Source of the DNA: a virus
Taxonomy: Duplodnaviria > Caudoviricetes
Reading direction: 5' to 3' (one strand)
Virus record (IMG/VR): IMGVR_UViG_3300037507_002397
Location: 1 to 53,288 of that record
DNA: 53,288 nucleotides
Part shown: positions 18,255-38,920 of the stretch, piece after piece
Layout of the letters: each line of letters starts with the position of its first letter
Position numbering within the stretch: position 1 is the first letter of the stretch
Position numbers and translations under genes: made by a program
The notes under the pieces: generated by a model
What the model saw: only the letters and a program-made list of their open reading frames with translations
What the model was told of the DNA's origin: nothing
Database searches by the model: none

Positions 18255-21071
18255 CTAGGGTTCCGGGACGATCGCCATCAGGAGACAGCGGCAGTTGATA
18301 ACTTCCTCGGCCGGCGCTCGATCGTCGCCGGGGTAGGCAAGCTGGGGCTTGAAGTCTTCGCCGAGAGGGCGGATCTGGCCGTCGAGTTCCTGATGGGTCT
18401 CGCGCACGTCGTCGTCACGCTCGCTGATCCATTGAACCTGCTCCACGCCTTCCTCGCGCATCTGTAGCTCGCGCGCGGTGTTCGTGGCCTTGGTAATCTC
18501 CGTGCGTGCGATCACGCCAGCGCGGCCTGTCTTGTCCGCGAAGACTTGCTTCAGCGATCCCTCAAGCTCCGGCAGAACTTCCTCGATGCGCTGGCGCATT
18601 TCGACAAAGCTCGACGGCTGGCCGAGCTCTTTGTCCAGGGTATTCTTGACGCGCTTGGCAACGGTCGAATGCACACCCTCGACGACCTTGATCTTCTGGG
18701 TCTCGAGCGCGCGCACGATTCGCGGATCGGACATCGGCAGGCTGATCCCGCCCAGCTCTAGCGCCTGATCTTTCAGAGCGGCCTTGAACGCTTGGCTCAA
18801 AACATCGTCAAGAGCCTTGTTTAGGTTTTCCAGCCATTCTTTCGGGTCGGGTACAAGTGCCGAAACAAACGGGTTCGGCGTTGCCTCGTCGGCCTTGGTG
18901 ACTAGCTCACTGAAGTCCTTGCCAGTTTCTGCGAATCGCCGGAGCTTGCGGAGCAATTCGCGCTCATAGCCGGCCAGCCACTTGCCGACGTTCTTCTGCG
19001 CCCTCTTTTCAAAAGGCAGCGAGACATCGCGCAAGAAACGACGGAAGTATTCCGCGCGGGCTTCGCGGGTTTCGAGCGGGCCCAGCTTGATCGACGGCTC
19101 CATGCCGGCAGCAGACTTCTCGCGCTCCGCATCAATGCGGGCGACAAGATCCTCTGCGTAGGCTTGAGCGCGGGACGCGCTGGTAGAGCTTGATCCTCCG
19201 CCCCAGAGCAGCATCGAGACCAAGCCGGGTGTGATTTCGTCACCCTGCACGGCCTCCAGATCAACCTTATGCCGCGCAATCCAGGGGCCGATCTTCCGCC
19301 ACTTAGCCTCGGTGACCTCACCGGCCGCCATCTTGCGAGCGTCCTCCACCGTCTGAGGCTTGAGTCCTTGGCCGCTTTCGCCAGCTTCGTGTAGCTTGAT
19401 GCCGCGGCGCGCGCTCGCGCGCATATAGGCCGGTGGTGCAAGGTCGATAGCCTTGACCTCATGCGCTGCAATATCCCGGCGCCGCATAATGAGGAAGGCT
19501 GGATCGACGGCCGCGGCCACCGGTGCTGGCGCAGGCGCTGGCGCTTCGTTTACGCCGCCCACAATGCGCCGAGCTTCCTCCTCGTCGATAAACGGGAAGG
19601 CAGCGAGGATCGTAGTCACCGCACCTTCGACGGTCAGCAGACCCTCGGAGACTGCGCGGAGGATGTCGAGTAGGCTGGAGACTTGCGCCCCGTTCAGGGC
19701 TTGATCGGCAACAACGGCCGTCTGATCCTCGGCCGGATCGGGCTCATCCTCGGTCTCTATTTCCTCGGACTCGTTCTCCTCTTCGTCCTCGTCCATTTCC
19801 TCGGACGCGAACACGGAGCCGTCGATGTCCAGCTTCAGCGCCTTGACCAGCTCGCCCAGATCCACGCCGGTAGCCAGCGAAATCTCGGCGGCCACCTTGA
19901 GGCGCGCGCTCTGATCGTTCCGCAGAGCCTCGATGCCAGCGAAGTCGAACCCGAAGACATACTGCCGGAAGCGCGGGTCAGCCATCCGCGGGATAAGCTG
20001 CGCGTTGATCTGCGCCTCGACGGTCTTCAGGTAGCCGACGACCGCGATCCAGAACTGCCGCCACGCCTCCTGGAGGTTGGAGTAAGTCGAAGCGTCCGGA
20101 GAAATTAGATGCACCGGGACTTCAAAGGTCGACGCCACGACATCGCGCGACCAAGTGAGTAGGTCGATGTACTGCATCCGATCCGGCGTGGCCGGGTTCG
20201 GCACAATCTTCGGGCCGCCGCCTAGGATCTTCAGTCCACCCGCGGTCTCCGCGTCCTGCGTCGCAGCATCGAGGTCGGACTGGAAGGACTCGAGCGCGTC
20301 GCGCTGGATGTCGTGGTCGTAGGTCACAAACGCGCCCGGGCCGCCGGAGCGCATCTGCGCTTCCTGTTGGCGCTCGGCTTGGAAGGCGATCTGAAGCTGC
20401 CGGTTGGCGACCTCTGCCGCGCCAAGGCCGCGGATCGGGTCGGCCGGATCGTAGTCCCGGAACTGAACAACGCTTGACCAAGGTGCGCGCAGCCGCTGAT
20501 TTCCTGCGGTCTGGAAGTACCAAAACGCGGGACGGCCCATGTCGTCTGGGTCATACTCAACCGCATCGCCGTTGACCGGCATGATCGAAAAAGGCAGCGT
20601 GATCGGCCCGTCAAATGGCGCCCAATTGCCATCGGTAGACTTGGGCCCGAACAAGAACCAGAAGCTCTCTCCTGATAGCTTGCGGTGGACAACATCAGCC
20701 TCGGCCAGTTGTGCCCAAGTCATATCCCGGTTCGGTCTCAGCAACTGCTGGAGAAAAGGATCGGACTCTGGGACTTCTTCGGCGTTTGCGCCCGGGCCGT
20801 TCCACATCATAGGGCGCACGCTTGCCGATGCGCGCGACCATAGCCGGCAGCAGAGATTGACAATCCATGACTGCTCGAACGGCTGCGATAGTTCAAAAGC
20901 TCCGGCCATCGACGGCCGAACTGCGAATCCGTTAGATTGAAAAAGAGTTTCTAGGCTTTTGGCTTTCCCATTGAATCTAGAAGCTCCGGCCATAGTGCCA
21001 AGATGCTCAAGATGATAGGATCCCTCACGGGCTGAAAAGGGCTTGACGCGGTTACGCCTAGACAGACTCAC
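18255..21071 (-). CDS. Portal protein fused to a C-terminal Mu gpF-like minor head domain
   Basis: Portal motifs (PN.DMT, GESFW, DPIRGLG, FEVP.HLI...TYSN) then IARTE...W....DDDVRETH..LDGQ...YPGD....EEVINCRC. Confidence 0.92.
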   Translation of the reverse strand: MSLSRRNRVKPFSAREGSYHLEHLGTMAGASRFNGKAKSLETLFQSNGFAVRPSMAGAFELSQPFEQSWIVNLCCRLWSRASASVRPMMWNGPGANAEEVPESDPFLQQLLRPNRDMTWAQLAEADVVHRKLSGESFWFLFGPKSTDGNWAPFDGPITLPFSIMPVNGDAVEYDPDDMGRPAFWYFQTAGNQRLRAPWSSVVQFRDYDPADPIRGLGAAEVANRQLQIAFQAERQQEAQMRSGGPGAFVTYDHDIQRDALESFQSDLDAATQDAETAGGLKILGGGPKIVPNPATPDRMQYIDLLTWSRDVVASTFEVPVHLISPDASTYSNLQEAWRQFWIAVVGYLKTVEAQINAQLIPRMADPRFRQYVFGFDFAGIEALRNDQSARLKVAAEISLATGVDLGELVKALKLDIDGSVFASEEMDEDEEENESEEIETEDEPDPAEDQTAVVADQALNGAQVSSLLDILRAVSEGLLTVEGAVTTILAAFPFIDEEEARRIVGGVNEAPAPAPAPVAAAVDPAFLIMRRRDIAAHEVKAIDLAPPAYMRASARRGIKLHEAGESGQGLKPQTVEDARKMAAGEVTEAKWRKIGPWIARHKVDLEAVQGDEITPGLVSMLLWGGGSSSTSASRAQAYAEDLVARIDAEREKSAAGMEPSIKLGPLETREARAEYFRRFLRDVSLPFEKRAQKNVGKWLAGYERELLRKLRRFAETGKDFSELVTKADEATPNPFVSALVPDPKEWLENLNKALDDVLSQAFKAALKDQALELGGISLPMSDPRIVRALETQKIKVVEGVHSTVAKRVKNTLDKELGQPSSFVEMRQRIEEVLPELEGSLKQVFADKTGRAGVIARTEITKATNTARELQMREEGVEQVQWISERDDDVRETHQELDGQIRPLGEDFKPQLAYPGDDRAPAEEVINCRCLLMAIVPEP

Positions 21072-29991: not shown

Positions 29992-30386
29992 CGCCGCGCT
30001 CCATTCGTGCGCCGGATCTCTCCTAGTTTTTCTTCGACGGCAAGACACTGCGCGAGTCGCTCACGATTGACGGCCGCGCGCCGTTGCTGGATCCAGTTTT
30101 CGTAGGTTGCCTCGCCGCCGAAGCACGCGCCGGGCGCGTGATCCCAGAGGAACGCGAGCAGCAGCCGAACGCTTGCAAGTCCGTCGAGTCCCATCGTTTC
30201 GACGCAAGCTGACAAATCGTTCCGCAGGATGGCACGCACGCATGGGTGGCTGGGCTCGATGCCGTTGGCAATGTACTCCAAGACCTGCTGCCTCCAGTCG
30301 GCATCTGCATCGCTGTACGGCTCGGCCTCGATCAGCGAGCGCACGCGCAGGAAGTCAACCGATCGGCCTTTGTCGAAATTATTCAC
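29988..30386 (-). CDS. Hypothetical early protein
   Basis: Coupled ORF (AILRNDL...AP.ACFGG...W). Confidence 0.7.
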   Translation of the reverse strand: MNNFDKGRSVDFLRVRSLIEAEPYSDADADWRQQVLEYIANGIEPSHPCVRAILRNDLSACVETMGLDGLASVRLLLAFLWDHAPGACFGGEATYENWIQQRRAAVNRERLAQCLAVEEKLGEIRRTNGARR

Positions 30387-30763
30387 GACGCGGCCTCCAT
30401 CTTGTAGCGGAGGAGCTCGACTCCGGGCCAGCCGTGCATCGGGATGCCGCGCGAGTCGAGGCCGAGCAGATCATTTCGCAAGTCGCGCGCATCGACGATG
30501 TAAGTTGCGTGCATGTCGTAGGCGAGCCAGCGGAGGATGTCGACCGAGTCTAGGATATCGGGGCCGTCGACGTGTTTAGTCGGCGAATTTTGATCTGCGG
30601 AGGCCATACTTTGTGCGAGCATGACCAGCTCATGCTGGTCGGCAGCCGGGAGGATGTAGGCCGGGCCGCTGTGCGGCGTCAGGACGACGAGCACCGGATA
30701 TTGCAGGCCGCTAATATCGACCGGGCGGCTACGTCGAGAGTGTGTGTTGTGAATTGTGATCAT
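30383..30763 (-). CDS. Hypothetical early protein, directly downstream of the hammerhead ribozyme
   Basis: ATG preceded by AGAAAGACAC-N5. Confidence 0.7.
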   Translation of the reverse strand: MITIHNTHSRRSRPVDISGLQYPVLVVLTPHSGPAYILPAADQHELVMLAQSMASADQNSPTKHVDGPDILDSVDILRWLAYDMHATYIVDARDLRNDLLGLDSRGIPMHGWPGVELLRYKMEAAS

Positions 30764-30785
30764 GGCTTGTGTCTTTCTCTGGTTT

Positions 30786-30839
30786 CCCGTTTCGGCCGTC
30801 CGTCGGCCTCATCAGCGGCGCGGGTCAGCGCCGGACGGG
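30786..30839 (-). ncRNA. Type III hammerhead ribozyme
   Basis: Minus strand reads CCCGUC^CGGCGC-UGACCC-GCGCCG-CUGAUGA-GGCCG-ACGGA-CGGCC-GAAA-CGGG: complete core, GUC triplet and three fully paired stems; predicted cut between 30834 and 30833. Confidence 0.93.
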
Positions 30840-30855
30840 GCGGCCCGAAGGCCGC
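30840..30855 (-). other. C(UUCG)G tetraloop hairpin immediately 5' of the ribozyme
   Basis: GCGGCC-TTCG-GGCCGC on minus, no U-tract. Confidence 0.7.
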
Positions 30856-30861
30856 TAGGCT

Positions 30862-31143
30862 TTATGCTGCGTGGATCTCGGCTGCGGTCTGGATCATCTC
30901 GCGGACGGCTGCGGTCTTGTATGCGGCGAGCGATTCGCTAACGCTTCTGAATTTGCGGCCCATACCCCGCCAAGCCTTCCAGCTAGAGTTTTTGACCACG
31001 ACTCGCACTTCGTTTTGCCAGCTTTCGGGGCCAGAAGAGATCTGCACATACGCGGAGTGATTGCCGCAGGCCAGATCCGCGTAGAGGATGCGGCGGCCTT
31101 CTTCGGGGGTCTGGGTGATCGTGTGGATAATCTGGACTTGCAT
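30862..31143 (-). CDS. Hypothetical early protein, first gene of the leftward operon
   Basis: ATG preceded by AGAAAGACGC-N5; downstream of TATAAT. Confidence 0.75.
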   Translation of the reverse strand: MQVQIIHTITQTPEEGRRILYADLACGNHSAYVQISSGPESWQNEVRVVVKNSSWKAWRGMGRKFRSVSESLAAYKTAAVREMIQTAAEIHAA

Positions 31144-31424
31144 GGCTCGCGTCTTTCTGTCTGGGTTTGTCTCGGCCGCCCTGCGCGGCCTGTCCCCTAT
31201 TATACGCGGACCCGAGCATGGGGTATACCCGGAAAATGCTTTTCCCCGTCACCTTTTCCCTAAGTGTGGGAAAACGAAGGACTTGCGCTGTTCTGTCCCT
31301 GAAATGGGAAGGGGGTGGGCGAATTTTCCCGGAATCCCTCTAGCCTTTTCCCGGGACTGCCGTAGTATGGGTAGACCGCAGCGCGAGGTGCGCCGCGGGC
31401 AACCCCAAAAGAAAGACACGACAG
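31144..31424. promoter_or_regulatory. Divergent early promoter region
   Basis: Leftward -10 TATAAT (31199-31204, minus); rightward TAGCCT-N16-TAGTAT (31341-31368); GGGTATACCC palindrome; several TTTTCCC/GGGAAAA boxes; GC hairpins at both predicted 5' ends. Confidence 0.7.
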
Positions 31425-31706
31425 ATGAACACGAACACGCTCACCCTCCCCAGAATCAGCCTCGGCGGGACTAACGGCGACGACCTGCTGGAAAGCTACG
31501 GCGTGGCCTATCGTGCGGCGCTTGAGGCCCTTGGCAAGCTGGCGCAAAACGCCTGCCCCAACGGGCGCGACTATGCGTCATGGGACGACTTCCTGGCGGC
31601 AAAGGAACAGCACGAAGAGCGCATGAAGCGCATCGAGTCCGTTGTTCTTGAGCTGGACCAAATCCGCGATTCGATCTGCACCCAAACCTTGGAGCGCAAG
31701 CTGTGA
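31425..31706 (+). CDS. Hypothetical early protein, first gene of the rightward operon
   Basis: ATG preceded by AGAAAGACAC-N5; PNGRDY motif. Confidence 0.8.
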   Translation: MNTNTLTLPRISLGGTNGDDLLESYGVAYRAALEALGKLAQNACPNGRDYASWDDFLAAKEQHEERMKRIESVVLELDQIRDSICTQTLERKL

Positions 31707-38280: not shown

Positions 38281-38489
38281 GTAATAATGAAAAATCCATG
38301 CCGTCCCAACGTAAGCCCCAATCTGCCTTTACGCGGCGCACCGGCTACATCTTTGTGATGGTCGCTGGCTGCGGCATCGCGGCAGTAGCGGGTCCAATGG
38401 ACTCGTGGCTGACGAATGCTCTGCTCTTCGCGGTGCTTGTCCAGGCCGAGCGGATCGTGGACCGCATGGACAAGAGGGGTGGCGCGTGA
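38277..38489 (+). CDS. Small putative membrane protein
   Basis: Two hydrophobic stretches; coupled. Confidence 0.55.
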   Translation: MSNNEKSMPSQRKPQSAFTRRTGYIFVMVAGCGIAAVAGPMDSWLTNALLFAVLVQAERIVDRMDKRGGA

Positions 38490-38920
38490 GCACGTTTGAC
38501 TTTCAGGACGGCAACGGTCCCGTCGCTGCTCACCAACACCCCAACGGTGGCGGGTGGGTAGCCAGCACAGCGTCTGTGGCACCTACGGCGTATGTAGGTC
38601 CGTACGCTCAGGTGTACGGCAACGCTCGGGTGTTCGGTAGCGCTCAGGTGTACGGCAACGCTCGGGTGTTCGGTAGCGCTCGGGTGTACGGCAGCGCTAG
38701 GGTGTTTGGCGAGGCTCAGGTGTTTGGCGACGCTCTGGTGTCCGGCAACGCTCGGGTGTACGACACCGCTCAGGTGTACGACACCGCTTGGGTGTCCGAC
38801 ACCGCTTGGGTGTCCGACACCGCTCGGGTGTACGGCAACGCTCGGGTGTACGGCAACGCTCTGGTGTCCGGCAACGCTCGGGTGTCTGGCGAGGCTCGGG
38901 TGACGGGAGACGCACGATGA
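38486..38920 (+). CDS. Left-handed beta-helix (hexapeptide-repeat) protein (start GTG 38486)
   Basis: H.HPNGGGWVA.TA.V...AYVGP followed by AxVxG/Dx repeats. Confidence 0.85.
   Translation: MSTFDFQDGNGPVAAHQHPNGGGWVASTASVAPTAYVGPYAQVYGNARVFGSAQVYGNARVFGSARVYGSARVFGEAQVFGDALVSGNARVYDTAQVYDTAWVSDTAWVSDTARVYGNARVYGNALVSGNARVSGEARVTGDAR
38606..38911 (+). repeat. 18-bp coding tandem repeat, 17 units
   Basis: Units such as GCTCGGGTGTACGGCAAC encode the hexapeptides. Confidence 0.9.

Follow-up and report, generated by a model that had tools for sequence, protein, structure and literature searches.

The presence of a self-cleaving RNA motif between two genes of a phage operon raises the question of whether it is a genuine ribozyme and, if so, what its cleavage would bring to the flanking cistrons. 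Such a locus was analyzed here in a whole IMG/VR virus record of 53,288 bases (the window; completeness estimate of 94%), in which a sequence-only reading had proposed an intact type III hammerhead ribozyme on the sense strand of a leftward early operon. Our analyses favor, with a probability of about 0.8, a functional type III hammerhead embedded in a three-part intercistronic cassette, which would consist of a stop-proximal GC tetraloop hairpin, the ribozyme and a copy of the phage's standard ribosome-binding leader. From the sequence evidence, the cutting of the leftward polycistronic RNA by this ribozyme is the most likely role.

The hammerhead and its intergenic setting

The locus comprises the following features.

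31204-31199, minus strand: TATAAT, perfect match, candidate -10 of a leftward promoter
31190-31174, minus strand: leader hairpin GGCCGC-GCAGG-GCGGCC (6-bp GC), 8 nt past the TATAAT and followed by GAGAC and the ribosome-binding site (RBS) block
30862-31143, minus strand: gene 1, ORF of 93 aa, no Pfam or PHROG match
30855-30840, minus strand: GC hairpin with a UUCG tetraloop (GCGGCC-UUCG-GGCCGC), 6 nt past the TAA stop and adjoining stem III with zero gap
30839-30786, minus strand: type III hammerhead ribozyme, complete core and three stems, read from the sequence
30764-30785, minus strand: unstructured translation-initiation leader, carrying AGAAAGACAC at 30778-30769
30383-30763, minus strand: gene 2, ORF of 126 aa, 79% identity in other viral contigs

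The hammerhead opens with a 5-bp stem III, in which 30839-30835 (CCCGU) is paired with 30790-30786 (ACGGG), and includes a 6-bp stem I (30833-30828 with 30821-30816, loop UGACCC) and a 5-bp stem II (30808-30804 with 30798-30794, loop ACGGA), the core segments CUGAUGA and GAAA being found at 30815-30809 and 30793-30790, respectively. The conserved core positions C3, U4, G5, A6, N7, G8 and A9 as well as G12, A13 and A14 are all present, the A15.1-U16.1 pair corresponds to U30835-A30790, and H17 is C30834 at the cleavage site. Stems I and II are closed by loops and stem III is open, i.e., the topology is that of the type III form. Because the GUC triplet occupies 30836-30834, the cut is predicted between 30834 and 30833, in agreement with the site previously put forward. 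The three fully paired stems and the CUGAUGA, GAAA and GUC elements that had been announced were all read directly, the 16 stem pairs being without exception Watson-Crick. The ribozyme had been placed in a 98-bp gap and this is indeed the distance between the stop codon of gene 1 (30864-30862) and the ATG of gene 2 (30763). On the sense strand between these two phage genes, the gap is divided into a stop-side hairpin region of 22 nt, the hammerhead, and 22 nt leading to the ATG. The hairpin expected ahead of the ribozyme was found at 30855-30840 and is unique of its kind on the minus strand of the window. Likewise, the motif-bearing RBS said to follow 8 nt later corresponds to AGAAAGACAC, which begins at 30778, the 8th base past the ribozyme, and the same motif occurs before the starts at 31143, 31425, 31773 and 34379.

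A descriptor combining the hammerhead core with three stems of at least 4 bp each was run on both strands of the window. It matched one site, compared with none in 300 dinucleotide shuffles, which rules out a chance motif, and no further site appeared in the window when one core mismatch was allowed. The comparison with the Rfam hammerhead family, to which the sequence-only reading had also pointed, gave a more mixed picture: in a local scan, RF00008 matched 30784-30841(-) end to end (model positions 1-54 of 54; E-values of 1.5e-6 for a 301-base segment and 6.2e-8 per record), but with a score of 36.6 bits, below the gathering level of 48.5 bits, at which nothing is listed in the window. In a whole-window Rfam scan at E<=1 the hammerhead was missed, and the local scan alone recovers it. 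Because a sub-threshold RF00008 search also gives matches in 3 of 14 control genomes, the covariance-model score alone proves little. Besides, the gathering score was reached by none of the nine hammerhead-bearing phage or viral records scanned (range of 22-46.7 bits); hence, routine annotation at the Rfam cut-off will miss this phage class. The window hammerhead shares with RF00008 the full core, the three helices, the open stem III, the GUC triplet and the stem and loop sizes of natural type III forms, whereas its loops, UGACCC and ACGGA, depart from the CAGNA-type loop 2 that is common among the viral matches listed.

The folding energy was not clearly better than that of shuffled sequences (z = -1.4 to -2.0). 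In a context of 116 nt, the centroid fold was the hammerhead three-way junction and the minimum-energy fold was a competing structure, lying 0.6 kcal/mol below the hammerhead centroid. A tertiary contact between the loops is needed for fast hammerhead cleavage at the Mg2+ concentrations of the cell. In the window hammerhead, the complement between loop 1 and loop 2 amounts to 2 nt only (CC:GG), and loop-loop complementarity was not significant among the matches listed, its mean being reached by 100 of 2000 permutations.

Homologues and placement of viral hammerheads

Viral contigs were then searched with a pattern in which only the two loops and CUGAUGA were fixed. Among the 57 matches, 55 resemble coding sequence and the remaining two (L136 and L159, identical to each other) are hammerheads, GUC, GAAA and each of the three stems being present. 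This homologous copy belongs to a complete 52.8-kb phage record (G005). Between the window and the G005 copy, two compensatory pair changes were counted in stem I and three in stem II with no disruptive change, and both loops are conserved, loop 1 being identical and loop 2 differing at one of its five positions. The DNA similarity between the window and G005 is confined to the cassette (76 nt, 77.6%), and no shared protein was detectable between them. Four hammerhead cassettes are found within the first 2.4 kb of G005, each followed by a GAGAGGA-type RBS and an ATG, and in three of the four the hammerhead comes directly after a GC hairpin with a UUCG or UACG loop. In the third G005 hammerhead (L203 1497-1551), core position 7 is a C and one additional U separates A9 from stem II, yet loop 2 (AUGGA) and all the stems are retained. 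From an unaided alignment of eight cassette hammerheads, RNAalifold recovered the three stems with 15 pairs, 13 of them with cases in which both sides had changed, although this covariation count is partly circular because most of the compared sequences had been found by structure-aware methods. The complete core, the chance control, the compensatory changes of the homologue and the RNAalifold covariation thus bear out the claim of an intact type III hammerhead on the sense strand.

Relatives of the two flanking genes were also sought. Those of gene 2 were limited to three viral contigs and one metagenome contig, representing one sequence type with 79% identity, and none was found in genomes. 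In these contigs, the equivalent junction is devoid of a hammerhead. At a distance of 1.7 kb upstream, where the gene block begins, they carry on the same strand an RF00008-like hammerhead with quite different stems, which is also adjoined by a hairpin. Only three ORFs are common to the window and these contigs. For gene 1, tblastn gave 23 relatives, and no relatives were obtained through the neighboring proteins of 337 and 132 aa. A blastn search with 30300-31250 returned no match in cultured phages. The pattern of the loop subfamily had no match in 185,579 species genomes, which therefore give no clue to the host.

Another phage, G008 (L108 and L109, about 52.4-57.2 kb of the record), has as many as four hammerheads within 5 kb. 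Some of these are devoid of a hairpin and are followed by an ATG 0-2 nt past stem III, with the end of the upstream ORF located within the ribozyme, a packing that is tighter than that of the window cassette.

The placement of hammerheads was further examined with a generic type III pattern, which gave at least 120 stretches in viral contigs, and 40 loci, corresponding to 40 distinct ribozymes, passed the three-stem descriptor. Among the matches listed, an ORF of at least 50 codons started on the same strand no more than 60 nt downstream (median of 16 nt) for 34 of the 40 ribozymes, compared with 15 of 40 on the opposite strand, and a same-strand ORF ended no more than 80 nt upstream for 23 of 40, compared with 11 of 40 on the opposite strand. 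A strong hairpin (at least 6 bp with at least 4 GC pairs, ending at most 1 nt from stem III) was present at 11 of the 40 ribozymes among the matches listed, vs. 9 of 1215 same-locus control positions (p=1e-12), and a looser hairpin definition gave 15 of 40 vs. 190 of 1215. The presence of this hairpin was associated with the end of an upstream gene: among the matches listed, a same-strand ORF ended upstream of 14 of the 15 hammerheads with a hairpin vs. 9 of the 25 without (p=6e-4), the corresponding figures under the strict definition being 10 of 11 vs. 13 of 29 (p=0.012). The spacing from stop codon to hairpin is usually 4-8 nt among the matches listed, and 6 nt in the window. Because the hairpin tracks upstream gene ends and keeps this spacing, a role toward the upstream cistron is favored over a role in ribozyme folding alone.

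Proposed processing of the leftward transcript and alternative explanations

Leftward from 31143, the minus strand bears an unbroken array of genes, in which small genes are accompanied by DUF1376 primosomal-like, Holliday-junction resolvase, terminase, portal, capsid, tape measure and tail genes. In the other direction, RecE/RecT-like and lysozyme-like genes are found rightward from 31425. With the ribozyme located after the first gene of the minus-strand array, the term "leftward early operon" used by the sequence-only reading is reasonable. The names that it gave to two of the downstream cistrons are less secure. The "truncated recombinase" retains one PHROG integrase match, but a weak one (E=2e-5) covering only residues 30-83, and the label "XRE" of a 146-aa ORF is unsupported, as this ORF has no Pfam or PHROG match.

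Several other observations were made on the gene content of the window. The minus-strand ORF at 18255-21071 (938 aa) contains a portal domain (residues ~60-395) and a head-morphogenesis or minor-head domain (residues ~680-937), and is apparently a portal/minor-head fusion. In a comparison with cultured phages, the identity of the capsid protein to its best matches did not exceed 32%, the hosts of these phages being mixed, and no tRNA gene was found in the window. On the plus strand, 38405-38920 encodes a repeat-rich protein of 171 aa with many overlapping tblastn matches to two regions of the L009/L010 contigs, resembling a tail or fiber module with collagen-like or other tandem repeats, common to otherwise unrelated phages.

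Upstream of gene 1, the TATAAT at 31204-31199 is the likely -10 of the leftward promoter and the hairpin at 31190-31174 is likely a 5'-terminal stabilizing hairpin of the transcript. A consensus promoter scan returned no full sigma-70-type site upstream of gene 1, owing to a poor -35. In the predicted fold of the native gene 1 leader, the hairpin forms with -13.9 kcal/mol and the remainder is unpaired, and no ribozyme was found upstream of gene 1. When this native leader was compared with the segment made of stem II, GAAAC and the RBS block, 31 of 41 aligned columns agreed, and 5 of 2000 shuffles scored as high. A AGAAAGAC(A/G)C(G/A)A(G/C)CC-type block is located 5-8 nt before the ATG at 31143, 30763 and 29245 on the minus strand and at 31425, 31773 and 34379 on the plus strand. 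Genes on both sides of the divergent region share this AGAAAGAC-type block, and AGAAAGG variants precede several late genes. The length of the block exceeds what a Shine-Dalgarno sequence requires, and it may thus act as a signal in translation or binding that is specific to the phage.

The following course of events can be proposed. The leftward transcript would start near the TATAAT at 31204-31199, and the ribozyme would fold as the transcript is made and cut it after C30834. Hammerhead cleavage leaves a 2',3'-cyclic phosphate and a 5'-OH, the established chemistry of the class. The upstream product would be the gene 1 mRNA, ending in the UUCG hairpin and a 6-nt tail, an end that should resist 3' exonucleases, and the downstream product would run from gene 2 onward, with a 5'-OH and starting exactly at the base of stem I. 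Consistent with this scheme, the predicted fold of the upstream product ends in the UUCG hairpin and the 6-nt tail, and that of the downstream product has its first base paired, followed by two hairpins and then by 26 nt unpaired before the ATG. The layout of this post-cleavage leader is the one of the native gene 1 leader, i.e., a hairpin, GA(G/A)AC and the same RBS block. The idea of a hairpin-capped upstream mRNA and of a downstream mRNA with a structured 5'-OH end, already contained in the sequence-only reading, fits these modeled product folds as well as the association of the hairpin with upstream gene ends. The net effect would be to uncouple gene 1 from the remaining operon in both stability and translation, and to insulate gene 2 from the sequence located upstream.

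Other explanations of the locus have to be weighed against this processing role. The motif could descend from a true hammerhead and yet cleave slowly or not at all in vivo; it would then be a relic that had accompanied the insertion of a gene cassette and would hardly affect expression. The slow and inactive phage variants that have been reported (Perreault 2011, PMC3088659) provide a precedent for such a situation, and the window hammerhead shows no demonstrable loop-loop contact, scores below the Rfam cut-off and has a marginally more stable competing fold. However, its core is perfect, every stem pair is kept and, relative to the homologue, the stems change by compensation only with the loops retained, a pattern that is not expected of a decaying relic. 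To this can be added, as weak evidence, that the cassette has no listed variants in four sequencing runs where both flanking genes vary, although the divergent contigs of these runs stop outside the cassette. Decay toward a relic is thus considered quite improbable. A related possibility is a conditional switch, in which the ribosomes ending gene 1, or a protein bound to the hairpin or to the AGAAAGAC motif, would select between the active and the competing fold and thereby tune expression from gene 2 onward. With only 6 nt separating the stop codon from the hairpin, a terminating ribosome would cover the latter, the alternative fold is nearly iso-energetic, and a regulated cleavage of phage hammerheads has been raised (Perreault 2011, PMC3088659). 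Nevertheless, the ribozyme has no ligand-binding or extra domain, its stems and loops are minimal, and the same cassette recurs before unrelated genes, a recurrence that suits a generic part better than a specific switch. The chance that cleavage is conditional in this way is, in our opinion, small.

At the other extreme, the GC-rich structures could act without any ribozyme chemistry, as a terminator, an attenuator or an RNase III-type site, the hammerhead core being coincidental. A strong hairpin placed directly after a gene is what such elements would call for, but this one is not followed by a U-tract, no minus-strand terminator was predicted in this region by the terminator scan, the full motif occurred in none of the 300 shuffles, and an independent homologue keeps the core. 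A coincidental core is very improbable. As for an intrinsic terminator, it was ruled out by the hairpin being devoid of a U-tract. Co-transcriptional cutting by a functional hammerhead stays the preferred reading of the locus in what follows.

Known systems and a possible junction cassette

The arrangement proposed for the window recalls several described systems. In phage T7, polycistronic mRNA is cut between genes at intercistronic RNase III sites, and the upstream message keeps a stable hairpin as its 3' end. The window would share with T7 the intercistronic cut and this 3' hairpin, whereas in T7 a duplex is cleaved by a protein enzyme of the host and not by the RNA itself, with an end chemistry that differs from that of a hammerhead. 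RiboJ, an engineered ribozyme insulator, reportedly has its extra hairpin downstream of the ribozyme; in the window, such a hairpin precedes the ribozyme and would remain attached to the upstream product. Such a hammerhead-based 5' insulator, placed just 5' of the RBS as in the window, removes the upstream context and raises downstream expression, with an approximately 2-fold increase in transcript and a 2-10-fold increase in protein described in E. coli (PMC6206723).

That phage hammerheads are known, as the sequence-only reading had stated, is correct. Hundreds of bacterial hammerheads, many of them in prophages where they flank single genes or short blocks, have been published, including intergenic ones, and prophage hammerheads cleave in vitro and in E. 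coli (Perreault 2011, PMC3088659). The same paper explicitly proposes that long phage transcripts are turned into gene-length mRNAs by hammerhead processing; intergenic phage hammerheads and a transcript-processing role are therefore already known. As in the window, the prophage hammerheads of that study are on the sense strand between phage genes, and their multiple copies flanking small varied genes resemble G005, whereas the window holds a single copy (Perreault 2011, PMC3088659). The closest positional parallel in the same source is the hammerhead variant of haloviruses HF1/HF2, located 13 nt before the first early gene with a mapped 5' end no more than 3 nt from the cut (PMC3088659). In both cases, an early polycistronic transcript has the ribozyme at its head, with a start codon a few nt further on, but the HF1/HF2 ribozyme is a core variant of an archaeal virus that needs high salt and precedes the first gene, whereas the window ribozyme has a canonical core and comes after the first gene. 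Activity in vivo was reported by cyPhyRNA-seq for three prophage-associated type II hammerheads of D. vulgaris (PMC8782182). In a 2019 review, the purpose of hammerheads in phage genomes is, despite their abundance, called undefined (PMC6765202). Within the portions of the phage-hammerhead literature covered here, no description of an adjoining upstream hairpin or of a regenerated leader was found, and the supplementary figures of Perreault 2011 may bear on this point.

Considered alone, the window hammerhead belongs to a class of ribozymes that is common in phages, is unremarkable within it, and would not surprise specialists. What is slightly above routine is the portable hairpin-ribozyme-leader cassette, together with a possible presence/absence polymorphism. 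We tentatively propose, as a possibility that goes well beyond the processing role itself, that the small gene, the stop-proximal tetraloop hairpin, the type III hammerhead and the copy of the standard leader form a junction cassette that is portable. Phage operons would take up accessory genes together with it, and the downstream gene would be left unaffected, because the ribozyme would cut the insert off, the hairpin would cap the insert mRNA, and the regenerated leader would provide the next gene with a 5' end resembling that of a first gene. This proposal draws on the cassette being the sole DNA common to two otherwise unrelated phages of ~53 kb (the window and G005), on its tandem reuse in G005, on the way the adjoining hairpin tracks upstream gene ends, on the resemblance of the post-cleavage leader to the native one, and on a contig joint and a loose end suggesting strains without a 380-nt unit. 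It predicts effects on the half-life and translation of both flanking cistrons when the ribozyme or the hairpin is inactivated, and would make the cassette a natural counterpart to the ribozyme insulators of synthetic biology. The locus lends itself well to testing, since its canonical ribozyme is single, the upstream hairpin and the leader are both defined, and natural strains devoid of the unit may exist.

Strain variation was followed in the 24 lake-water DNA runs in which the phage is present, none of the 24 being recorded as RNA. In contigs from four slightly divergent runs, 10 variant sites were found between 30434 and 30687, in gene 2, and a 285-nt contig at 30917-31201 carried 25 differences. 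No cassette variants are listed in these four runs, but the divergent contigs stop at 30742 and 30917, so that the cassette of the divergent strain simply falls outside them. A contig joint links 30667 to 31141 (one contig, depth 12, side 49), a kind of evidence to be read with the reservation that low-likeness contig joints can come from other organisms. On the minus strand, a 23-letter loose end before 31141 continues the ATG of gene 1 as M-I-T-I-H-E, which matches the N-terminus of gene 2. Taken together, the joint and the loose end suggest, as a lead, the existence of strains in which gene 2 directly follows the gene 1 leader and which would be devoid of the 380-nt unit made of gene 1, the hairpin, the ribozyme and the leader copy. 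The leader pattern of this unit-less variant had no match in viral contigs. A further joint, from 30667 to 30753, suggests another form with a diverged N-terminus of the 126-aa gene 2 protein.
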